A stretch of DNA of 64,000 nt from an uncultured Pseudomonadales bacterium (GTDB taxonomy: Bacteria > Patescibacteriota > Microgenomatia > UBA1400 > MFAQ01). The notes beneath the pieces are model-generated. The model was not told the origin of the DNA. It worked only from the letters and a program-made list of their open reading frames with translations, and did not search any database. Position 1 is the stretch's first letter; each line of letters begins with the position of its first letter. The position numbers were made by a program, and so were the translations under genes. The stretch covers positions 393 to 64,392 of the forward strand of contig CAYHNG010000003.1 of assembly GCA_964357975.1 (NCBI GenBank), given 5' to 3'. Shown in pieces: positions 8,422 through 60,778 of the stretch.

Positions 8422-8492
8422 AGAATTTACAAGCGGTAATTAGGATGGTCTCTGGCGGGGTGGTCTCCCGAAAGAAAATGGCTAACCTATAA

Positions 8493-8526
8493 CAGTTGAT
8501 TATTTGCTTATTTCTGGTATAATGAG
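8493..8526 (+). promoter_or_regulatory. near-consensus sigma70 promoter: TTGATT, 16-nt spacer, TGGTATAAT (extended -10)
   Basis: Read directly from the sequence, upstream of the Erm-like gene. Confidence 0.45.
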
Positions 8527-8557
8527 GCTATTATGATTACTTGCATCATCCTCCGCC

Positions 8558-9292
8558 GTGTTCAAAACAAGGCGGAAACTACTATCGCAGAACTTCTTTA
8601 GGGACTCTGAGCTGATAAAGCGGCTCATCCGAGCCTCCGGTATTTCGTGGAATGATACAGTTTTGGAGATTGGGTCGGGAAACGGCATCATCACCGAAGG
8701 TCTACTCTCTGCTTCCAAGAAGGTAATGGCAGTCGAAATAGACAAAGATTTATTTGCCCTTGTATCTGATCGTCTGGGGAATAATAGTGCTTTGGAACTT
8801 GTTTACGGAAATTTTCTAGACATTGATCTGCCCAGAGAACCCTACAAGGTCTTTGCGAATATACCTTTTTCGATAACCGGTGAAATAATTAAAAAACTGC
8901 TGTTTTCGAAAAATCCGCCAAATGATTGTAGCCTGGTTGTTCAAAAAGAAGCGGCTGAAAAATTCATAGTTAATACGCACAAAAATAGCATGCTCTCGGT
9001 TCTGTTTTATCCTTTTTTTGATATCAAAATTGAATACGTTTTCAAAAGAACCGATTTTAAACCAACTCCGAGTGTGGATCTATGTATGCTACGAATTGTG
9101 AAGAGACCAACACCGTTAATTTCTAAAGAAAAGACCGACAAATACCGAGATTTTGTCGTTTACAAATTTACAAAATGCAGAGAAGCCGGTGAGTGGACTA
9201 TGGCACGATGGTTAAACTCTTACACCAAAGATATACCCTGTGGTGGGTCGTTCTTAAAATGGCAAGGGGAGCAGAGCAACGGCTTCCCTTAG
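8558..9292 (+). CDS. rRNA adenine N6-methyltransferase of the Erm/KsgA family, Erm-like
   Basis: 244 aa, the same length as ErmC. SQNFF N-terminus, EIGSGNG motif I (Gly-Ser-Gly rather than the KsgA GPG), YKVFANIPFSITGEIIKKLLF (ErmC has [21 protein letters not shown]), FKPTPSVD...RI and a C-terminal KYRDFVVYKF (ErmC has KYNYFVMKWV). It lacks the KsgA FSQRRK motif. GTG start. Confidence 0.6.
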   Translation: MFKTRRKLLSQNFFRDSELIKRLIRASGISWNDTVLEIGSGNGIITEGLLSASKKVMAVEIDKDLFALVSDRLGNNSALELVYGNFLDIDLPREPYKVFANIPFSITGEIIKKLLFSKNPPNDCSLVVQKEAAEKFIVNTHKNSMLSVLFYPFFDIKIEYVFKRTDFKPTPSVDLCMLRIVKRPTPLISKEKTDKYRDFVVYKFTKCREAGEWTMARWLNSYTKDIPCGGSFLKWQGEQSNGFP

Positions 9293-9951: not shown

Positions 9952-9972
9952 AATTAAATGCTATTATAAACA

Positions 9973-10395
9973 ATGAAAATAAGAATTTTGGCATTGTTGT
10001 CATTTGCTATGTTTTTTTTTGGAGCCACTTCCACACTGGCGGCCAAAAAGAGGGTGTGGGAGAAGACTGTAGTGACTACTGCCTCCCGAAATAGCCCCTT
10101 GTCGGTATCTGCCAGATTTAGCGGATGGAAACAGTACTTGAATGTGAGTTTCAGAGGAGTAGCGAGCACCAAAAGTATTGCCTACGAGTTAATCTATGCT
10201 AGCAACGGCGTAGATCAGGGTGCAGAGGGCAAAGTGTATTCTAATGAAAGCAATGTAACCAAATCGCTATTTTTAGGAACTTGCTCCTACAGAGTGTGTA
10301 CTGCTCATAAAAATGTGAGCAACGTGCGATTGAGAATCACATATCAAACTATCGGTGGTCAAAATGTGGTAAAAAACTATAAAGTGAAATATTAG
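9973..10395 (+). CDS. hypothetical secreted protein
   Basis: 140 aa. Signal peptide MKIRILALLSFAMFFFGATSTLAA. Confidence 0.5.
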   Translation: MKIRILALLSFAMFFFGATSTLAAKKRVWEKTVVTTASRNSPLSVSARFSGWKQYLNVSFRGVASTKSIAYELIYASNGVDQGAEGKVYSNESNVTKSLFLGTCSYRVCTAHKNVSNVRLRITYQTIGGQNVVKNYKVKY

Positions 10396-11151: not shown

Positions 11152-11181
11152 GAAAGTTAGTCAGACTGATAGAATGAAGAT

Positions 11182-25249: not shown

Positions 25250-25263
25250 GAGGCCATATCATT

Positions 25264-26754
25264 TTATACCCCATGACCTTTTTCGAGTGCCTTTTTTATC
25301 TCGAGTTTGGCTTTGTGTGTTTTGACAAAACGCAACCAATTTTTGTTGGGGTACTTTGATTTTTTGGATTTGATGATCTCGACGACGTCCCCACTTTTAA
25401 GTTTGGCATCAATGGTGGCGATACGATTATTGACTTTGGCTGTTTGGATAAAGAAACCAAGACCGGAATGAACATTGAAAGCGTAGTCGACGGGGGTGGA
25501 ATTTTCCGGAAGATCGTAAACGTCTCCTTTGGGGGAAAAGACGTAGATGTGATGGGAAAGTGCATCAAGGTGAAAGTCTTTAACCGTTTCTTGCTCGGAG
25601 AACATCTGTTCTTTCCAGCCCGCCAGTTGCTTGACCCAATCATACTTATTCCCTAATTTGAAGGAGGTTCCTTTTTCCAACCTGTCTCCGTCCACCCCTT
25701 CTGTTTTGGCTTGTGAGTAGGCAAAATGAGCGGCGGCTCCATATTCGGCTTGAGTGTGCATATCTTCCGATCTGATCTGGATTTCGATGACCTGCCCTTT
25801 ATGATCAAAAATCTTAGTATGAATAGACTGATAACCATTGGGCTTAGGTTGAGAAATGAAATCAGAAATACCTAGATGAGGCACCGGTTTCCAATATTGA
25901 TGAATTACCCCCAGAGCCGAATAACATGAAGCAGTGTCTCTGGTAATAATCCGGATAGCCATTAGGTCATGGACCGAGTTGATGTCAAAATTTATTTCAG
26001 GTCTTTGTAATTTCCGATAGAGACTGTATAAATGTTTTGGGCGGCCATCTACCCGAGCAGTAATTTGATGTTTGGATAACTGCTGACGAATACGATTCAA
26101 AATCTCTTGGGTGTTTTCTTTGGCATAAGTCACCCTGTTGGAGGCAAATTCTTTGATCCATTGGTACTCTTCGGGGTACACGTATGGGAAGACAAGATCC
26201 TCCAATTCACTCTTGGCTTTTCCCATACCCAGCCTTTCGGCAAGAGGAGCATAAATCTCCAGTGTTTCTAAGGCGATGGGCCGCTGTTTTTCTACGGGCA
26301 GGCCATGAAGAGTCATAATGTTGTGACGGCGATCGGCAAGACGAATGAGAATGGCGCGCAGATCCTTCGCCATGTAGACGAACATTTTTCTCAAATTTTC
26401 CAAGAATTCAACATCTTGACTTCCTCTCAAACGAACTTGTCCGACTAAGTTAACCCCATCTACGAGGTGCGCAACCTCCCAGCCGAACTCCTTTTCAATC
26501 TCGGCGATCGTGATACCACTCATCTCCGGAAGATCATGGAGGAGACCTGCCTCAATGCTCAACTGATCCAGACGCCAGCTGGCTAAAGTGTGGGCGATAT
26601 TGAGAGGATGGGTGATATAGGGATCGCCGGTCTTCCGAGTTTGTCCCAAATGTTTTTCTGCAGCATAATGGTAGACCTGTTCCAAGTGGTGATGATTGAT
26701 GTCTCCACGATGAAGGCCGGCTTCGTCAAGAATATCCTTGAGAGTGAGTTCCAC
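25264..26754 (-). CDS. (p)ppGpp synthetase/hydrolase of the RelA/SpoT family, short form
   Basis: 496 aa. HD hydrolase domain (HPLNIAHTL, LHDL), synthetase domain, and a TGS-like C-terminus. Confidence 0.8.
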   Translation of the reverse strand: MELTLKDILDEAGLHRGDINHHHLEQVYHYAAEKHLGQTRKTGDPYITHPLNIAHTLASWRLDQLSIEAGLLHDLPEMSGITIAEIEKEFGWEVAHLVDGVNLVGQVRLRGSQDVEFLENLRKMFVYMAKDLRAILIRLADRRHNIMTLHGLPVEKQRPIALETLEIYAPLAERLGMGKAKSELEDLVFPYVYPEEYQWIKEFASNRVTYAKENTQEILNRIRQQLSKHQITARVDGRPKHLYSLYRKLQRPEINFDINSVHDLMAIRIITRDTASCYSALGVIHQYWKPVPHLGISDFISQPKPNGYQSIHTKIFDHKGQVIEIQIRSEDMHTQAEYGAAAHFAYSQAKTEGVDGDRLEKGTSFKLGNKYDWVKQLAGWKEQMFSEQETVKDFHLDALSHHIYVFSPKGDVYDLPENSTPVDYAFNVHSGLGFFIQTAKVNNRIATIDAKLKSGDVVEIIKSKKSKYPNKNWLRFVKTHKAKLEIKKALEKGHGV

Positions 26755-34761: not shown

Positions 34762-34800
34762 AGTGGATTCATTTTACTATATAAAGATATAATATTAAGC

Positions 34801-36970: not shown

Positions 36971-37076
36971 TATAAGAGCTTGCTCGCCATCTTTTCAATA
37001 ACAGTGTTATTGAAATATCTGTCTGCGCTTCCTCTTATATCTGGCGCCGATAACTATATTATCGGCTGGATATAAG
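36971..37076 (+). repeat. copy 2 of the dispersed intergenic repeat family (TATAAGAGCTTGCTCGCC; TCAATAACAGTGTTATTGA; CTGCGCTTCCTCTT; CCGATAACTATATTATCGG; CTGGATATAAG)
   Basis: Shared boxes A and B plus two palindromes. The minus-strand reading gives TTGAAA-17-TTATAA about 25 nt upstream of the 36944 start. Confidence 0.6.
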
Positions 37077-37755: not shown

Positions 37756-38059
37756 AATTGGCTATCCCTAGTACGAGAGGAATGCCCTGCCGCAAGGCGG
37801 GGAGGAAAGTCCGGACAGCTAAAAGGAAGGGTGGCCATCGAAAGGTGGTCTCCCGCCAAGTAATTGGCGGGACGCGATAGGGCCACAGAGACGATTAAAG
37901 GTGAAACGTTCCACCGTTAGGTGGAGATCCTTTAAGAGTAATCTTAGAGGAGTGGTAACCCGCCCCGCTGCAATCGACGAATTGGGATTAAGGTACCTTT
38001 TCTATCCCTAAAGTCTCGAGCATAGATAGATATTCCTCCACGACAGAATCCGGCTTATT
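37756..38059 (+). ncRNA. rnpB: RNase P RNA (bacterial type)
   Basis: P4 5' strand GGGGAGGAAAGTCCGGAC (about 37788-37805) and P4 3' strand CGACAGAATCCGGCTTAT (38031-38048). P1 CCCTAGTAC (37756-37764) pairs with GTACTAGGG (38050-38058). ACAGAGA and AGGTGAAAC motifs. The ends are approximate. Confidence 0.8.
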
Positions 38060-38072
38060 GTACTAGGGAGCC

Positions 38073-38105
38073 CGCAAGGGCTCGTTGGGTGGAACGTTTT
38101 CAAAC
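38073..38105 (+). repeat. direct repeat DR1 (CGTTGGGTGGAACGTTTTCAAACTTTTTCAGAC) immediately 3' of rnpB
   Basis: 29/33 identical to 39328-39360. The last 20 nt are identical. Confidence 0.6.
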
Positions 38106-49266: not shown

Positions 49267-49340
49267 CGGGGTATAGTATAACGGCAGTATGCGCGCATGG
49301 GGTGCGCGCGATCTCAGTTCAATTCTGAGTACCCCGACCA
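49267..49340 (+). tRNA. tRNA-Pro (anticodon GGG), with encoded CCA
   Basis: Hand-folded. Acceptor CGGGGTA pairs with TACCCCG. U8, G10, A14, GG18-19, A21. Anticodon stem CGCGC/GCGCG, loop ATGGGGT (U33, GGG, G37). T-arm CTCAG-TTCAATT-CTGAG. Discriminator A, then CCA. Confidence 0.85.
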
Positions 49341-49376: not shown

Positions 49377-49482
49377 TATAAGAGCTTGCTCCTTGCGATG
49401 CACATAACTACGCTATGTTGCTATCTCCGGTCCGCTTCCTCTTATTTCCGCTCATAACTTCGTTATGATGCTTGGAAATAAC
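49377..49482 (+). repeat. copy 3 of the dispersed intergenic repeat family (TATAAGAGCTTGCTCC; GCACATAACTACGCTATGTTGC; CCGCTTCCTCTT; CTCATAACTTCGTTATGATG; CTTGGAAATAAC)
   Basis: Sits between the intact tRNA-Pro and a tRNA-Pro-like 3' fragment, about 200-300 nt upstream of recA. Confidence 0.6.
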
Positions 49483-53750: not shown

Positions 53751-55514
53751 AGGAGCGGGCTGGCCGTAGTCGAAAATTTTGATGGGAGTTTGTTCCTGAT
53801 TAACCAGTGTGTTGCCGGAGAAAACCAACTTGACCAGAAGGCCTTTCCTGGTTTCTTCCGACCACATTTGATCAAAAACTAAATTGCCAAGCGAATAATA
53901 AATTGGTTTTTCCTTGTATATTTCAACCTCCTGGACCCAGTGCGGGTGATGACCAATAACGACATCAGCACCCGAGTCAATAGCCAGGCGGGCAAGCTCC
54001 ACCTGATGAGATGTCCGCTGACGATACTCGTTCCCCCAATGGAAAGAGGCCACTACGATATTGGCTTGCGATTTGGCATAAGCTATTTGCCCGGAGATAT
54101 TTATTGGCCAAGACATGGCAACTTCCGTAAAATACGGAGGGGTGTCGTTAAACCCAAGAAAAGCAACTTTCGTCTTCCGAACATCTTTGATAACAAGTTT
54201 GCCCAAACCGATCGGAGTAATTTTATTTTGGTTAAGGAGCGAGAGTGTGAAATCAAACCCTTCTTTCCCCTGGTTACTTATATGGTTGTTGGCCAGATTA
54301 ACAATATCTATGCCGGCCAAAATTAAACCATCGACAGATCGAGGGTCGGCGCAAAAAAACATACCCGTATCGGTAGGCTGACAGTCCGAATTAAAGGGTG
54401 ATTCCAGGTTGACGATGGTCAGATCGGCCGTTGATAAAAGATTGGCTATTTTTCTAAAAGGCCAGGAGAAATCCCGATATTTGATCATTCTGGTGTTAAC
54501 AGATCGACCAAGCATGACATCACCGCCGAAGACGAGGGTGGTAGTGTTGATCTTAGATTTCAGATCTCGGATGTCCGCTGGGGAAGGAGATGTGTTTGGA
54601 TTTGCGATTTTTTTTCCGATAAGTAAGTAGTAAGAGGTAACTGATTCCGGGATATTGTTAAAAGAAAACGAATCGGTGTGAACCAAAATCTCTGAAGATA
54701 ATGATTTGGTTTGAATAATTTTCAAGGTGGATATCAGAGAGGCTGGAGAGTCCAAATATTCGGAGGATAGTTTTTCAATGACCGAATAATTATGGTCACG
54801 TATTAAACTCTCGGTCCGGGTATCCCGTTCGACTGCCTGGTCATGATTTAAGCCATGGGAAAAATCGATAGAAGCGATAACTACAACATGAGGCGAGGCC
54901 GAGATAAGTTGTTGAGAAAAACGCTCGAGTAAAATAGGATCGATATTTTTCTTTAAGGCAAAGGGGATAACTTTGGTGTTTGGCAAATAATAGGCCAGGA
55001 AGGGCATCAACCCGGCGAGTCCGTGTTCCGGTATAAGGGCACTGTCGTCCAAACACGCCGTTTCGTATTTGATAAACGAACTCTGCAGATCTTGATCCAC
55101 AAGTATTTGTCCAAATGGAGTATCCCAGCCATTAGAAGACGAAACGATGTCACACTGACCGATGTTGGCGTGATTCGGTGACAGAAGAATAATTGTCCGC
55201 GGTGGGTCTGCAGTTAGTAAGGAGATCCCCCTGGCGATAACGTTGGAGGCGGTTAAATGGTGAGGAATAACCAGAACAGAAGGAGACGAACCTTTGGGAA
55301 GATGGGGGTATTGGGAAATCGCGGGGAAAAAGGTCCTGTTATCGTAGGCAAAGTCGGTAGAAAAAGTGGGCGATACAGAGAGAGGTTTCCTCGATATGCC
55401 AAAAAAATATAAAAATGCCCCAAAAGTAAGGACAAGCAATATTATTCCTTTTATGTATCCAGATGGATTCCCGATCGGGTCGGGAATGACAAGGGACTGT
55501 TTGGCGATTTTCAT
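53745..55514 (-). CDS. fusion protein: Memo/LigB-like (class III extradiol dioxygenase fold) domain plus a CapA/PGA_cap metallophosphatase domain
   Basis: 589 aa. N-terminal TM, then LVIPHH...IDFSHGL (Memo-like). C-terminal LVFGGDVMLGRSVNT...NLESPF...NLANNHISNQG...FHWGNEYRQ...DVVIGHHPHW (CapA family). Confidence 0.6.
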   Translation of the reverse strand: MKIAKQSLVIPDPIGNPSGYIKGIILLVLTFGAFLYFFGISRKPLSVSPTFSTDFAYDNRTFFPAISQYPHLPKGSSPSVLVIPHHLTASNVIARGISLLTADPPRTIILLSPNHANIGQCDIVSSSNGWDTPFGQILVDQDLQSSFIKYETACLDDSALIPEHGLAGLMPFLAYYLPNTKVIPFALKKNIDPILLERFSQQLISASPHVVVIASIDFSHGLNHDQAVERDTRTESLIRDHNYSVIEKLSSEYLDSPASLISTLKIIQTKSLSSEILVHTDSFSFNNIPESVTSYYLLIGKKIANPNTSPSPADIRDLKSKINTTTLVFGGDVMLGRSVNTRMIKYRDFSWPFRKIANLLSTADLTIVNLESPFNSDCQPTDTGMFFCADPRSVDGLILAGIDIVNLANNHISNQGKEGFDFTLSLLNQNKITPIGLGKLVIKDVRKTKVAFLGFNDTPPYFTEVAMSWPINISGQIAYAKSQANIVVASFHWGNEYRQRTSHQVELARLAIDSGADVVIGHHPHWVQEVEIYKEKPIYYSLGNLVFDQMWSEETRKGLLVKLVFSGNTLVNQEQTPIKIFDYGQPAPL

Positions 55515-58500
55515 TTGATACTCACGGAGCCGGCAGGAGAAAGGTTGAAAACCGAAGGAGAGATAAGCGACTGAATGAGAGCACTCTCGGCACGGAACTT
55601 CCCGGCTGAAATCACCCGAGCATAGTAATTGATGGTTTTGTTTTCATCGCCTTTACCGACACAGAAACTTACTCTTTGACCATTTATTTCGTAGGGATAC
55701 CAGATATTGCCGGTATCAAGTCCATAACTATAAACACTGGCGATCGGTTTGAGTCCTGAAGGCAACAGATCCGTAACTTGATAACACCCGTCTTGAGAAA
55801 TGGTGGTGTGAGCTACCGGTAGCGAAATGCGCACCAAGTCGGCAGTGGCAAAATTGTTGGTGGAGGCGCCCCGGACAGAATAAGTTCTACCCAATTTTAC
55901 CGATGGGTCGACAACAGCTGTTTTTGGATCAAGTACCGAAGTATAAGAGGTGCTTAGGCCAATATCCCCATTTAGGTCACTAAAGGTAATCTCCGTCAGT
56001 TCTTTGGGTGAAAGTCCCAGCTTAAAGACCTGACCTTTCTCAAGTTTCTTTAATGTTTTTTTACCATTCAGAGTGTAGGTAAACGAAACCGGCTGTGGCT
56101 GAAGATTATCTATTTGATGAGAAATTGCCAACAATTGAGGTGAAACGAGAAGAAGATCTTTGCTCCTGTTAGACAAAGTGTAGGCGAGTAAGCTGTCCGC
56201 TTCCGGCTCTGCCAAGATGGCAGCGAGGGAGGAGGCAAGTGCAGTGGCATGAAGGTAGCTGTCTTTATCCGCTCCGATCTTCAAATAGGTTAGCGTGTCC
56301 TGCTTGACAGCAAATTCGGCGAGAAGAGTTCGATAGGTAAGGCGAGCTTTTTCGTTGTCTCCAAGTCCGGCCTGAGCAAGCCCCAAATACAGCCGTGATA
56401 ACGGTTCGAGGTGCTTTTCATCCGAAAGATTATTGGTAAGCAGTAAAACAGGTTCGTCTAAACTAGCCAGACCAAAGAGGGAGATTGCAGCAGTTTCCGT
56501 ATCTTTGGCTTGGGCTAATTGGCGATAGAAATAGTTGCCCAATCCGACGGTGTCCACTCTTTCTTTAGCCAAATTTGCAACAAAGGCCGAAAGCTCGATA
56601 TCCGCACCGGAGTAGGGAAAAAGGGCAAAACCGCCATCAGAAGTTTGGAAAGCGGTAAAGTCAAAGGCTTCGGGCTGGACTGAGCTGTCAAAAATTTTAG
56701 CGATAACGGACTGAGAAATATTCCTTGCCAAACGTTGATCTAGCCGATCCCCCCAGGTATAAGCCAAATTGGAGAGCGGAGGGAAGAAGCGACCCAGACT
56801 TTTGTCGGAAAAAATTAAGTCGGTGACGGAGTCGGCAGAACCTTCCGGCTTGGAGTCGGATGATAAGGTGGTATGGGTGGTTTTGACGATTTTAAGACGG
56901 GATCTGAGAACGGTAATCTTTTTAGTAATCTTGTCGGAAAGGATGCCGGAATTGCCTGATAAAACAATGTTGTGTGACCCTTCTTTTAGCTCTCCCAAAT
57001 CTACACCAGCACTTTCAAAAGCCTTCAAATTTAAGCTTTTATCCAGATTTAAAGTTGGCGACTGAATCCGAAGAGTGACCTGATCTCCCGGTGACAAACC
57101 TTCACCATAGGCACGGACGGAGATTTCCGGGCGCTCACCCATCAAATATTCGGTGTTCATAACCACATCAACAAAGAAGGGCTGCTTGACGACCAAGAGA
57201 TTGGAGCTGGCGCCTACTTTGAGGTCTCCAGTAACCCCTTGCGAGGTAATTCTCCAAGAGGTGAGATTGTCGGGAAGTTTGACGTCCAAGCCTGCACGAC
57301 CATCGCTTCCGGTTCGAACACTACCAAAGTAGGCATTGTCTACAAATAGCTCTCGGCCCTTTTCGTTGTGAACATAAAACCCATCAGCAAAGTAGGTGTT
57401 GTATTTTTCGACCGTAAAATTGAAGACAGTATTGATGCCGGAACGAGACTCGAGGGAATAAATTTTTTGATAAATTCCATGCGAGTCGAGGTAATAGTCT
57501 CCGACTTTGACCTCTCCCGCCGTCATGAAACGGCCGTTGATGTAAAGATTGTGTTCGGCGGTAACTCTGAGTCGATTGTTGATTAAATAATAACCTGAGA
57601 CTTGATGCCGGAATACCTGGATAACTTTGGCGCTAACTGATTTGGTTGAAGAGGGACTTTGGAGCGTTTTGATACTATCGCCAACAACGACATCTTCAAT
57701 GTTTTTGGTTTTGCCATTCCCCATGAGGATAGTGGTGCCAGGCAGGAAACAACCACCACCTTCGGCCCCGGAGATGTCAAGAGGATATTGGTGAGATTGA
57801 TACGAAACTAGAATGTCAGCGTCTAATGAAGAATAAATTCTAGTCAAGGGATCGACCGTTACCGGACTCATAGCGTTATACGCTTCGTCAAGAAAGCTAA
57901 TATTAACTTCTGCCGATGCCGGATTACCCTTTTGATCTTTGGAGAGGATGGAGAGTCTCACTGTATCTCCCGGAAGATATGACGACTTATCTTGGGTGAT
58001 ATCAAGAGAAAGTTTTTTACCGGAAGGGTCGAACATTAAATTCAAACTTTCCGAAACTTCATACGTTTGTCCGGTAAACCTAACGGCTCGAACGGAGATG
58101 TTGGGGATAAAGGCTTCGGAGAACCGGAAGTTGATACTTGGATCGTCCGAAATTTGATAGGATCTAATCCCTCGCTGAGCAAAGAGGTAAAGGAATTTGT
58201 CGGAATCGGTGGAGGGCATGGGAGTCTCACCGCGCATGACTTTTAGACTAACCGGTTCATCGACGGCATATCTATCATTACTTCCGGTTTTATCTGTTTT
58301 GAGAAAAACGTAGTTATTGTGGGGATAGCTGTCGGCAGATCCGGAAACATAAACGTCCTGAGTAGTAACACGGTTTTGATCATCTGCGGTACGAAAAATG
58401 ACGTTGTAAGATTTGCCTGCCGAAACCGGGAATTCGTAAACCGCCCGTCCATTGGAGTCTGTAGTGAGGGTGATATCGGCAATTTTGTTTTGGACGCGAT

Positions 58501-60778
58501 CGTATTCGTAACGGGGGGAAGTGACTTTGTTTATAAAGTCATAATAAGTACCGACTTCCCGACGGTTCCACTGATTTTCCATGAGAACTCCGGTGATAGC
58601 TTTGCCGGGTGCCGGAGAAAAAGCGTCAAACGAAGTATAGGGTACAAACTTGGAAGTATCTACCTGCCGCAGATCCAACTCTACCCGGCCTGTTGTCCCT
58701 TTTGATTCAGCTTTGGTTGAATTAAAGGCTAGAGAAGAACTGAAGACCGCCACTGAAACATCAGCTTGAATCTCGCCTTCTTCGGGCAACGATGGACGAA
58801 CGTAATAATAAGTGTATTCGGGTGAGTAGTTGATAAAGTTGGGACTCATAGAAGTAACTTGGTGAAAACCGAACCTCCCCAACGAATCGGTCGTCACCGA
58901 ACCACTTAAATCACGGCCGGCATATTTTAGTTCCATTCCCGGTACCGGCGAACCCTCGAAAAAAGTGGCCTGACCGGAAAGAGTAATTGTTTCTCCGACA
59001 ATGGCGGCTTTTTGAGAGGACTGAAGCGTGAGGCGATAAGCTGGCTTGGTGTAAGTGGCTACCGTAAACGAGGAGCTCATGATGATAGATTCACCAATTT
59101 TGAGAGAAATGCCGTACCAGCCCGGATTGTAACCGGACAAAGGAATTTCGCCGATAAAGGTTCCCAGATCGCTAGTTTCAAAGTCTTTGGTAAAAAGGAC
59201 GATGGGATTAAAATCCCAGCTCGTATAATCCGACCGTGTAACTTCTAAAGTGAACTTTTGTTTTTGATTGAGGTTGTCCCTATCTCTGAGGAGTCCCCAG
59301 AATTTAACTTGGTCAGTGGGAAGATATGACGGCCGATCGGTATAAAAGTAGCTCCAGTATTTATCTGACAGGCGACGGGATTGTTGATATTTGGAATAAT
59401 AGTAATTGTTGTTAATATTTCGGGGAGGGAGAATTAAGGTGCGGCCAGCGTGGCTAACCGTTAACATGGTCTGGTCCTCCAGTTGTGACGCCGGAGTATC
59501 GAAGTAAGCAACTCCTTCCGACCCCGTTTCTTGTTCTTTTCCGGCGATACTTACCTTGGCACCGACAACCGACTTTTTGGACCCGATATCATTGACCCAA
59601 ACCAACGTCTTCGTACCGCTAATACTAAGATATGCAGAAAGATCGGTAATCTGAACCAGGGCCTGCGTAGTAACTCCTCCCGGACCTCCAATGTTCCCCT
59701 GAACCAGATAAAGTCCTTGAGGAAGCTGCTGGGGCAGAAGGAAATAGTTGGTGTATGTTTGGAGCTGAATAGGCGTGTGGAAATCCAGGACCTTGTTGAG
59801 CCCAGCGACCGGTAAACGTTTTGAATGGAGCGAATTGTAGGCCCATGTGGGGATAGAAAGAAGGGTGTTGAAGTCTGAATAAAAACCCTGTATGCCGGGA
59901 TACTGATAAACCTCCACCGATAAATCACCACCACCGGAGGAAGAAGTGTAGATGTCAAACGCAGGTGTTTCGGAAGGTGAAAACTCATAGAAATTTCGAG
60001 CAAACCCGAGTGTGGTGGTGTTGGTTGCCGGCTGGGTTTCGAAACGATACACAAAATTCTCCTTGAGGGTTTCGGACGTGCCTTTCAATTTCAGACCCTT
60101 CTTAAGCCGGATGGTGTAAAGAGTGCTGGGTGCCAGGCTCTTAGGAATGAAGGATACCGTCCGCTTGTGGCGTTCAAAGCGGCCCTCGACAGCGGGAGAA
60201 ATTTCAAAGTTACCCTCTTTAAAACCGATGTATTCCCAGTTGTCATGACTGAAGGTAATCTCGATTCCGGTGTTGAGAGGTACGTAAGTAGCTTGATCTC
60301 GGGGAAGGGTTTGAACAACACGGAAGTCATTTTTGGTTTGAAAAGCCCACGAAAATGTCCGCTGTTCGGAAAGAATCTTGATGCGATACAAACTATTATT
60401 CTTGAGAGGAGTCTTGGGAGAGAGACTAAACTGACGAGGATTGACCTCTCTAATGTCGAAATCAATTTCAGGAAAGAAGGTCACGTTATTTTTTAGTCCG
60501 GCGACGGTGAGATCTTGGTCGGACTTAAGCGTAAAAGTAGAATCCGAAAATGTTCCGAGTGAATCTTGTCGATCTGCAGTAAGTAACAGTCCGGCGTCCG
60601 AACCAAGTTTGAGCTTGGCAGTATGCTGAAGATATTGTGAAGCGAGAATGACTGAGATGAGTAATCCCAACGAGGCAAACAAAATCCCAAACAGTTGCCA
60701 AGGCTTCAAAGAACGTAAAAAAGACTTGATTTTTCCCATCGATGATTTCAGTTTAGTTTCAGTGTTGGGAGATGTCAA
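55511..60778 (-). CDS. alpha-2-macroglobulin-family giant surface protein (no CxEQ thioester seen) with an inserted Hint/bacterial intein-like domain
   Basis: 1755 aa. N-terminal TM. A2M signature RELFVDNAYFGSVRTGSDGRAGLDVKLPDNLTSWRITSQGV. Downstream QTSDGGFALF (TED-like, no thioester). Hint domain as in the next feature. Its start overlaps the upstream M14 gene stop as ATGA. Confidence 0.7.
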   Translation of the reverse strand: MTSPNTETKLKSSMGKIKSFLRSLKPWQLFGILFASLGLLISVILASQYLQHTAKLKLGSDAGLLLTADRQDSLGTFSDSTFTLKSDQDLTVAGLKNNVTFFPEIDFDIREVNPRQFSLSPKTPLKNNSLYRIKILSEQRTFSWAFQTKNDFRVVQTLPRDQATYVPLNTGIEITFSHDNWEYIGFKEGNFEISPAVEGRFERHKRTVSFIPKSLAPSTLYTIRLKKGLKLKGTSETLKENFVYRFETQPATNTTTLGFARNFYEFSPSETPAFDIYTSSSGGGDLSVEVYQYPGIQGFYSDFNTLLSIPTWAYNSLHSKRLPVAGLNKVLDFHTPIQLQTYTNYFLLPQQLPQGLYLVQGNIGGPGGVTTQALVQITDLSAYLSISGTKTLVWVNDIGSKKSVVGAKVSIAGKEQETGSEGVAYFDTPASQLEDQTMLTVSHAGRTLILPPRNINNNYYYSKYQQSRRLSDKYWSYFYTDRPSYLPTDQVKFWGLLRDRDNLNQKQKFTLEVTRSDYTSWDFNPIVLFTKDFETSDLGTFIGEIPLSGYNPGWYGISLKIGESIIMSSSFTVATYTKPAYRLTLQSSQKAAIVGETITLSGQATFFEGSPVPGMELKYAGRDLSGSVTTDSLGRFGFHQVTSMSPNFINYSPEYTYYYVRPSLPEEGEIQADVSVAVFSSSLAFNSTKAESKGTTGRVELDLRQVDTSKFVPYTSFDAFSPAPGKAITGVLMENQWNRREVGTYYDFINKVTSPRYEYDRVQNKIADITLTTDSNGRAVYEFPVSAGKSYNVIFRTADDQNRVTTQDVYVSGSADSYPHNNYVFLKTDKTGSNDRYAVDEPVSLKVMRGETPMPSTDSDKFLYLFAQRGIRSYQISDDPSINFRFSEAFIPNISVRAVRFTGQTYEVSESLNLMFDPSGKKLSLDITQDKSSYLPGDTVRLSILSKDQKGNPASAEVNISFLDEAYNAMSPVTVDPLTRIYSSLDADILVSYQSHQYPLDISGAEGGGCFLPGTTILMGNGKTKNIEDVVVGDSIKTLQSPSSTKSVSAKVIQVFRHQVSGYYLINNRLRVTAEHNLYINGRFMTAGEVKVGDYYLDSHGIYQKIYSLESRSGINTVFNFTVEKYNTYFADGFYVHNEKGRELFVDNAYFGSVRTGSDGRAGLDVKLPDNLTSWRITSQGVTGDLKVGASSNLLVVKQPFFVDVVMNTEYLMGERPEISVRAYGEGLSPGDQVTLRIQSPTLNLDKSLNLKAFESAGVDLGELKEGSHNIVLSGNSGILSDKITKKITVLRSRLKIVKTTHTTLSSDSKPEGSADSVTDLIFSDKSLGRFFPPLSNLAYTWGDRLDQRLARNISQSVIAKIFDSSVQPEAFDFTAFQTSDGGFALFPYSGADIELSAFVANLAKERVDTVGLGNYFYRQLAQAKDTETAAISLFGLASLDEPVLLLTNNLSDEKHLEPLSRLYLGLAQAGLGDNEKARLTYRTLLAEFAVKQDTLTYLKIGADKDSYLHATALASSLAAILAEPEADSLLAYTLSNRSKDLLLVSPQLLAISHQIDNLQPQPVSFTYTLNGKKTLKKLEKGQVFKLGLSPKELTEITFSDLNGDIGLSTSYTSVLDPKTAVVDPSVKLGRTYSVRGASTNNFATADLVRISLPVAHTTISQDGCYQVTDLLPSGLKPIASVYSYGLDTGNIWYPYEINGQRVSFCVGKGDENKTINYYARVISAGKFRAESALIQSLISPSVFNLSPAGSVSIK
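57366..57751 (-). other. Hint (intein/BIL-like) domain within the A2M-like protein: CFLPGTTILMGNGK...VTAEHNLY...YFADGFYVHN, followed by Glu
   Basis: Block A (Cys1...GD..V), block B (TAEH) and C-terminal VHN are present. The +1 residue is E, not C/S/T. About 129 aa. Cys codon at 57751-57749, terminal Asn at 57368-57366. Confidence 0.75.

Follow-up and report, generated by a model that had tools for sequence, protein, structure and literature searches.

Introduction

In the attenuators of ermC, ermA and ermB a short leader open reading frame (ORF) follows a strong promoter, and the ribosome-binding region of the methyltransferase gene lies in a hairpin. We describe here a locus that has both elements, in a stretch of 64,000 nucleotides (hereafter the window; positions 393 to 64,392 of contig CAYHNG010000003.1, assembly GCA_964357975.1). 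The gene in question, at 8558..9292 (+), encodes a protein of 244 amino acids (aa) that we assign to the Erm family of ribosomal RNA (rRNA) adenine N6-methyltransferases on profile scores, a tree, motifs and a structure model. Its closest named proteins are Erm(Q) from Clostridium perfringens and Erm(42) from Pasteurellaceae and enterobacterial plasmids, over 75-83% of the query, and its closest proteins overall come from Candidatus Collierbacteria (Microgenomates, candidate phyla radiation) with 64-79% identity. Two surveys have counted 'erm' in genomes of the candidate phyla radiation, with 3,077 and 13,375 matches; in these surveys the matches were not separated from KsgA, the macrolide-lincosamide-streptogramin genes were untested and leaders were not examined (PMC8651080; bioRxiv 10.64898/2026.07.13.738296).

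The window carries a new Erm-family member with a putative attenuator of new architecture, unlike the leaders of the erm genes compared. The reading that we favor, and that we hold to be somewhat more probable than its rivals taken together, is an Erm-family gene (A2058 N6-methylation, macrolide-lincosamide-streptogramin B resistance type) in Candidatus Collierbacteria, the synthesis of which would be gated by translation of the leader. An initial annotation of the window had read the locus as an erm-like gene with an erm-style leader and hairpin. This appears largely right, however the mechanism cannot be the classical one that it cited. The gene belongs to one well-defined subclade that is placed phylogenetically inside validated Erms, and its control region has changed less than the enzyme, as would be typical for a resistance function that is costly and inducible, here in ultra-small bacteria of groundwater. 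An overlapping, nearly leaderless leader cannot work like that of ermC, and the locus therefore offers a testable case of how drug-responsive attenuation may be constructed in organisms with little Shine-Dalgarno initiation.

The control region

The methyltransferase ORF starts with GTG and encodes the motifs EIGSGNG, YKVFANIPFSITGEIIKKLLF and KYRDFVVYKF. We take the GTG at 8558 as the correct start because homologues begin at the same residue in the alignment (MFKTRRKLLSQNF); an in-frame stop lies upstream of it at 8534. A consensus scan finds a promoter with 10 of the 12 consensus positions, in which a -35 box TTGATT (8496-8501, +; TTGACA in relatives) is followed after a 16-nucleotide (nt) spacer by TATAAT (8518-8523) with a preceding TG. 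The extended -10 box TGGTATAAT thus covers 8515..8523 (+). The features listed in the initial annotation were all recovered in place, this promoter among them, although the 16 nt of the spacer already include the TGG that had been written separately.

A leader ORF of 22 codons (MITCIILRRVQNKAETTIAELL; 8533..8601, +), read in a different frame, extends 44 nt into the methyltransferase gene across its start. Its ATG lies 9 nt past the -10 box and would be the first AUG of a predicted, nearly leaderless messenger RNA (mRNA); in all leader-bearing clades this distance is 9-11 nt. The inverted repeat TCCGCC (8552-8557) / GGCGGA (8571-8576) flanks the GTG, and the corresponding GC-rich hairpin UCCGCC/GGCGGA (8552..8576, +) is predicted from folding and conservation. 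The start codon does lie within it, as had been noted, but not free in the loop, since an inner 4-bp stem (8559-8562 with 8566-8569) pairs the UG of GUG. Folding of 8530-8602 alone gives two adjacent hairpins, the other one being a weak AUGAU/AUCAU structure (8533..8549, +) that includes the leader AUG and recurs in several, not all, clades.

Conservation of the control region was calculated as mean pairwise nucleotide identity of 11 Collierbacteria sequences. Identity is 0.41 upstream of the -35 box, 0.46 in the promoter spacer, 0.89 in 8524-8557, 0.915 in the first 45 coding nt and 0.71-0.75 in the remainder of the gene. A motif adjoining the -35 box, CCTATAACAG (8486..8495, +), is near-invariant among Collierbacteria loci and may represent an UP element or the binding site of a regulator; similar motifs, i.e. 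CTATAGTTGA, are present in distant clades. At third codon positions identity is 0.91-0.92 over codons 1-15 and falls to 0.55-0.56 in later codons. This synonymous constraint drops at the leader stop codon (8599-8601), about 25 nt past the hairpin, and in a second clade, where the leader extends to +65, the constraint reaches further to match (0.86 vs 0.47). We argue that the leader ORF is translated because the constraint boundary tracks its stop codon, as dual coding predicts. In the same genomes neighboring genes are 78-95% identical and the methyltransferase 66-74%, so that a fast-evolving enzyme is found behind an almost frozen leader.

Other explanations for parts of this region were considered and rejected. 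GAGG (8524-8527) is a poor Shine-Dalgarno sequence for the leader: it abuts the -10 box, is replaced by GAGC, AAGA and ACAG in loci L091, L092 and L094, and belongs to a genome that rarely uses such sequences. A programmed frameshift that fuses leader and enzyme is disfavored by the leader frame (+1 in most clades, -1 in the MCIT clade) and by the enzyme N-terminus, which aligns with Erm N-termini. The sequence CGGAAA after the hairpin, as a mimic of 23S G2057-A2060 for autoregulation, fails because the hexamer is found solely where it encodes Arg-Lys of the protein, with CGGAGG or CGGCGU in its place in other clades. No Rfam family covers the leader, and no description of this leader was found in the literature. 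A separate observation is that the leader holds AUCAUCCUCC at 8544-8553, which resembles the 3' end of 16S rRNA, GAUCACCUCC (the anti-Shine-Dalgarno sequence); it occupies the place of the relatives' Shine-Dalgarno GGAGG and is near-invariant in the Collierbacteria clade.

The layout in relatives

Both leader ORF and hairpin are kept across the subclade. About 30 distinct loci from Microgenomates and Chloroflexota, with 43-54% protein identity, share the layout although their sequences differ. It consists of a TAnAAT box, a gap of 9-11 nt that mostly ends in R-TT-ATG, and a small ORF over the methyltransferase start. By our own regrouping, about 35 of 37 subclade loci have a leader that begins with ATG and overlaps the gene, vs about 7 of 71 other family members. 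The subclade leaders (MITVI.., MCITI.., MGANFF.., MSCFF..) end 44-88 nt past the methyltransferase start, lie in the +1 frame relative to the enzyme in most clades and in the -1 frame in one, and traverse the methyltransferase Shine-Dalgarno sequence, where AGGAGG is read as Arg-Arg. In about 8 of the 12 clades they carry R-x-R (RLR, RIR, RFR, RPR) just before the methyltransferase AUG; L122 and L010 are members with this motif. Woesebacteria locus L026 has a degenerate leader without ATG (9961-10040, ..GTAACTGTAAGGGGGTTC..; covariance-model score 29 bits) and may be a de-regulated, constitutive variant.

At nearly all of the ~30 loci the minimum-energy structure is a hairpin with the Shine-Dalgarno sequence in the 5' arm, the AUG on top and codons 5-9 in the 3' arm. 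The arms differ in sequence between relatives (CCGGAGGCUCCGCUG/CAGCGGGGACUCCGG at -29.8 kcal/mol, GGAGGCUCUU/AAGAGGCUCC, GGAAGGAUCCGC/GCGGAAACUUCU). In an alignment of 28 sequences with a manually defined helix, 76% of the cells are paired vs 41-49% when the partner is slid; double changes occur in 6 of 13 helix pairs, and 2 of 500 shuffles reach the covariation score. The result is much the same when 35 distinct sequences are aligned with a covariance model (75-76% paired and 6-7 of 13 pairs compensatory over both alignments), and in 631 kb of sequence the model matches solely the 5' ends of these genes. When codons 2-15 are resampled synonymously, 28 of 30 sequences fold less stably (median z -1.7), which is moderate support for the hairpin from codon choice.

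In other branches of the family, namely Chloroflexia, Ktedonobacteria, Thermomicrobiales, Oscillospiraceae and the cultured Sporosalibacterium and Anaeromonas, the upstream ORFs are short and lie apart from the gene. Their peptides read MTRLRLV, MIRIRLI, MIVIRIRK, MGIIIRIR, ..IFYIRLRG, ..FTRVRR and MIRLRR. Short leaders with R-x-R lie 100-260 nt upstream of the Erm-like gene in L143, L147, L149, L155, L156, L036, L038, L053 and L059 as well as in L070, L071, L068, L076, L030, L027, L032 and L080. In a crude test, an upstream ORF with R-x-R was found at 21 of 74 other-branch loci vs 12.6% of control upstream regions. These leaders look like erm leaders of the transcription-attenuation type in Chloroflexota and Clostridia, because a T-run of at least five separates leader and gene in 6 of the 7 loci examined closely, where hairpins were judged by eye. 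Since the short leaders resemble ErmXL and most subclade leaders carry R-x-R, the comparison supports the view that the whole family may consist of drug-inducible erm genes and that the overlapping leader would descend from such sensors.

The enzyme

The window protein matches the Pfam family RrnaAD (PF00398; E = 2e-43), with its EIGSGNG and NIPF motifs present. It scores 194.7 bits with the NCBIfam model NF000499 (Erm23S_rRNA_broad, here Erm_broad) vs 136.8 bits with ksgA (TIGR00755), i.e. 58 bits apart, both values lying below the curated cut-offs of 212 and 171 bits. For calibration, true KsgA proteins (E. coli and Bacteroides RsmA) reach 255-299 bits with ksgA and 136-139 with Erm_broad, and true Erms (Erm(Q), Erm(42), Erm(X) and an Acinetobacter Erm-like protein) 213-296 with Erm_broad and 125-155 with ksgA. 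Seven orthologues show the same Erm pattern as the window protein (193-202 and 130-150 bits, respectively). Among plasmid proteins the best named relatives are Erm(Q), 41% identical over 83% of the query, and Erm(42) with 37-39%; ErmA, B, C and X (28-31%) and Bacteroides RsmA (26%) rank lower. With less than 80% identity to named Erms, the protein would presumably found a new Erm class if it is functional.

In a neighbor-joining tree with 100 bootstraps Erm A, B, C, Q, 42, D, E and X and the environmental family exclude KsgA/RsmA with 86% support, and the window protein nests within these Erms. It falls into a 100%-supported subclade together with sequences from Collierbacteria, Amesbacteria, Woesebacteria, Thermoflexales, Anaerolineales and one from Dehalococcoidia. 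In the alignment the KsgA insertion before motif IV is absent, and FTKCR stands where KsgA has FNQRRK. Loop 12 is short and of Erm type (NTHKNS vs NTKRS in ErmC); loops 1 and 12 have been described as the RNA determinants of Erm (PMC9386465). An AlphaFold model (predicted local distance difference test score 85.4) has ErmE and Erm38 as top structural matches, however KsgA follows so closely that the fold by itself cannot discriminate. A place for the window protein on the Erm side of the Erm/KsgA family is thus supported, and the initial proposal of an Erm-like rather than KsgA-like enzyme is borne out by model scores, named hits, indel and motif pattern and tree position, which agree.

A proposed mechanism

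Only 5 of 43 genes in the window have a Shine-Dalgarno-like sequence, and 12 of 42 have a -10-like hexamer 3-14 nt before the start codon vs 2.7% of random positions. Such boxes near a start are seen, for instance, at 9952-9975, 11160-11181, in the 25250-25270 region and at 34762-34790. This pattern suggests that short or absent 5' leaders are widespread and the norm for promoter-proximal genes in this genome, and because of it the leader AUG, unlike the methyltransferase start, has the appearance of an ordinary gene start here.

We propose that transcription starts 1-3 nt before 8533 and yields a nearly leaderless mRNA. Ribosomes would load first on the leader AUG, as on other genes of the genome, while the hairpin would keep the methyltransferase start closed; in Collierbacteria no Shine-Dalgarno sequence precedes this start either. 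The hairpin would be opened by a ribosome that translates the leader or pauses in it, and for this reason enzyme synthesis would be gated by leader translation. The signal is likely a macrolide-type drug that slows or arrests the leader ribosome, because the erm and cat attenuators are analogous and most of the related leaders carry R-x-R. The opening could come about in two ways. The first is a coupling in which the leader ribosome would have to pass through the 3' arm; this would explain why the leader always ends past that arm, and drug-slowed elongation would prolong the exposure of the start. In the second, arrest or peptidyl-tRNA drop-off at 6-10 residues, beside the AUG, would be followed by initiation in place. 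It is conceivable, although we consider it a tentative idea with the greater weight against it, that an undescribed class of antibiotic-sensing switches for leaderless-initiating organisms is at work, in which arrest or drop-off of a macrolide-bound ribosome at R-x-R would unfold the hairpin and allow in-place re-initiation by that ribosome's own subunit or by a newly arriving one, conserved across Erm genes of the candidate phyla radiation and Chloroflexota.

Several points speak against a leader-gated Erm. The place where transcription starts is a prediction. With its P site 7 nt ahead of the methyltransferase AUG, a ribosome arrested at R-x-R would cover the start, and therefore the classical ermC/cat release logic fails. 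The clade of the window has ILRH or ILRR (the window itself ILRR) instead of R-x-R, and CCUCC in place of the Shine-Dalgarno sequence. The hairpin of the window folds with -14.2 kcal/mol and z = -1.5, and 15 of 200 shuffles fold equally well; because the window fold alone is not beyond chance, the weight of the hairpin comes from its conservation in relatives, where RNAalifold on the sequence alignment returned no consensus structure. On the side of the enzyme, all subclade members score below the curated Erm cut-off of NCBI (193-202 vs 212 bits), which we ascribe to the C-terminal domain: compared with both Erm and KsgA about 32 residues of this RNA-targeting domain are missing throughout the subclade, and model positions 2-198 of 244 align. 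The tree has three KsgA/RsmA references as outgroup and weakly supported inner nodes, and one of the references, 6ifx, is by our reading of its sequence an engineered KsgA/Erm loop chimera. Finally, the conserved basic tail of the orthologues is missing from the window copy.

Alternative explanations

This missing tail bears on the rival that survives best, although we regard it as rather unlikely: that the copy in this genome is decaying or inactive, owing to a 3' truncation and a change from ATG to GTG, and that its control region regulates a crippled enzyme. The orthologues have about 259 aa and end in a basic tail, L.KIHRTRTDRNW, that is common to Erm(42). They include a 259-aa protein from GW2011_GWB2_45_17 (L001) and one encoded on the complete 1.09-Mb Collierbacteria contig MFAS01000001.1 (L004). 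Homology of the window gene to them stops at 9276, where the last ~20 conserved codons give way to SNGFP-stop and unrelated DNA, so that five residues replace about 20 (non-homologous 3' end, 9277..9292, +). The length identical to that of ErmC, which had been taken as an Erm trait, is therefore a coincidence of this truncation. The gene lies at a synteny breakpoint, and among the listed copies of the Collierbacteria clade GTG is confined to the window and the 99%-identical contig L083, all others having ATG. However, the other 239 residues are intact, with all catalytic motifs and a confident fold, the near-identical copy L083 comes from an independent metagenome contig, and ErmC, ErmB and ErmQ work without such a tail. 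With its GTG start, the absence of R-x-R and the lost tail, the window copy may be weakened or of reduced function.

Unlikely, but to be taken seriously, is an Erm-like paralogue that acts on another rRNA position or has a housekeeping role in Microgenomates and Chloroflexota, with a leader that serves feedback or growth-rate control. Scores under the Erm cut-off, the shortened RNA-targeting domain, a tail specific to the subclade and the absence of R-x-R from the window's clade would fit such a protein, as would neighboring genes that are not resistance genes. Against it, the tree brackets the family by validated A2058 methyltransferases, the orthologue tail recurs in Erm(42), and RLR-type leaders, typical of macrolide-inducible genes, are found in sister branches. 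The patchy distribution across phyla and an evolution faster than that of the neighbors (66-74% vs 78-95% identity) also speak against it.

We consider a divergent housekeeping KsgA/RsmA, the 16S A1518/A1519 dimethylase, very improbable. KsgA has been described as universal (PMC10582724), and no second RrnaAD gene was found in the 64-kb window or in 160 related loci (1.5 Mb); a marginal RrnaAD match in L011 (E ~1e-3) is far too weak for a KsgA. However, the ksgA score of 136.8 lies below the cut-off of 171 and in the range of true Erms, the KsgA insertion and QRRK are absent, and the protein is nested in the Erm clade. A pattern scan found about nine carriers among Collierbacteria species representatives, assigned by title or similarity (L001-L009; six so named), against 54 Collierbacteria taxa listed at NCBI, a rough comparison since the collections count species differently. 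A sequestered start with predicted gating by a leader would also be unlike a housekeeping gene.

That leader ORF and hairpin are chance products of an AT-rich promoter region and a constrained N-terminus, as the modest z of -1.5 for the window hairpin, some overlapping upstream ORF in about 10% of unrelated family members and the conserved enzyme motif SQNF, which forces a cross-clade likeness of the C-terminal half of the leader, would allow, is scarcely credible given non-coding and synonymous sites that are about 90% conserved vs 41-55%, a constraint boundary that tracks the leader stop codon, a -10-to-ATG spacing fixed at 9-11 nt across divergent clades and compensatory changes in the hairpin arms.

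Genomic context

In the neighborhood of the gene no resistance or mobility functions were found (TspO, DUF2177, DUF1295, radical SAM, GIY-YIG, adenylate kinase-like). A GC-richer intergenic stretch at 6393-6837 (0.52 over 6450-6690) contains the palindromes CCCGACTGCAGTCGGG and TTGATAACAATACTGTTATCAA. Segments of it recur in the window at 49433-49481 and 36972-37036 and in related loci (L001 7900-8105 and 11748-11788; L004 166-264 and 6256-6436; L081 3990-4155), in some Collierbacteria loci on both sides of the Erm-like gene. The stretch is possibly an intergenic repeat or resembles a terminator; no Rfam family matches it, and a match to the tetrahydrofolate riboswitch with E = 0.86 is not credible. 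Five co-directional ORFs at 521-6392 (-), the last of which encodes a B12-binding radical SAM protein (5025-6392), may form a small biosynthetic cluster. The window further contains a bacterial RNase P RNA of class A (37765-38073, +; 118.8 bits), a tRNA-Pro (GGG) as the sole transfer RNA in 64 kb (49267-49340, +) and a very long, TTG-initiated ORF (1755 aa; 55511-60778, -).

L005, L007, L009 and many 'MAG TPA_asm' loci are titled 'uncultured Pseudomonadales' or 'Gammaproteobacteria', while their genes are 49-68% identical to the Collierbacteria gene and at least L005 is also syntenic with Collierbacteria. These assemblies seem to bear unreliable taxonomic labels. A start-covering hairpin together with a leader of the MIT.I..R.R type could serve as a genomic marker for environmental inducible erm genes.

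Comparison with known systems

With KsgA/RsmA (TIGR00755) the window protein has the fold, the S-adenosylmethionine-binding motif and the NxPY/F motif in common, but KsgA has QRRK and an insertion, and the window protein lies outside the KsgA branch. Erm(Q) and Erm(42) share the Erm-type indel pattern with it, and Erm(42) also shares the C-terminal 'L.KIHR.R' tail with its full-length orthologues. Unlike the window's subclade, both have kept the ~32 residues of the C-terminal domain, and no overlapping leader is seen upstream of erm(Q) and erm(42).

The erm-style attenuation proposed initially holds as far as a conserved leader and a start-sequestering structure are concerned. It does not hold for the leader end: ErmCL, ErmBL, ErmAL and ErmXL end 28-124 nt before the gene, whereas here the leader overlaps the start and ends 44-88 nt past it. 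Nor does it hold for the window's clade in that both Shine-Dalgarno sequence and R-x-R are absent. Because the leader runs through the start and ends at least 44 nt beyond, the classical stall-and-release of ermC cannot apply. Attenuators of the ermC type have four segments, the element of the window type two, and unlike in ermC, ermA and ermB the 5' arm contains the Shine-Dalgarno sequence; a ribosome that stalls in the 5' portion of the leader would therefore cover the start. The peptides are nevertheless alike, as ErmAL (MCTSIAVV..) and the leaders found here (MCTTIC.., MITVI..) are hydrophobic and rich in I, V, T and C. ErmXL (MLISGTAFLRLRTNR), recovered upstream of erm(X), has ..FLRLRTNR like the leaders of the other branches and starts 7 nt past a TATAAT box, akin to the window leader. 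In ErmDL and ErmXL, R-x-R follows a hydrophobic run, which is common to most subclade leaders, while the window's clade has ILRH or ILRR. The leaders of the other branches presumably also resemble ErmDL and the Arg/Lys-X-Arg/Lys macrolide arrest motif; Arg/Lys-X-Arg/Lys is reportedly a rule for macrolide-dependent arrest. The R-x-R of the subclade could be a by-product, since it is built partly from the AGG of the Shine-Dalgarno sequence and the CGC of the arm.

The closest parallels to the proposed mechanism thus lie in part outside the erm genes. Attenuators with leaderless short ORFs have been described in mycobacteria, in which the sensor ORF is leaderless and the first cistron, as proposed here (bioRxiv 10.1101/834739). 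In the coat-replicase coupling of MS2 an upstream ORF is translated across a strand that masks a downstream start, again as in our proposal. Unlike in the MS2 and mycobacterial systems, however, the two ORFs of the present locus and its relatives overlap out of frame by 44-88 nt, and the masked start is predicted to lie inside the sensor ORF itself.

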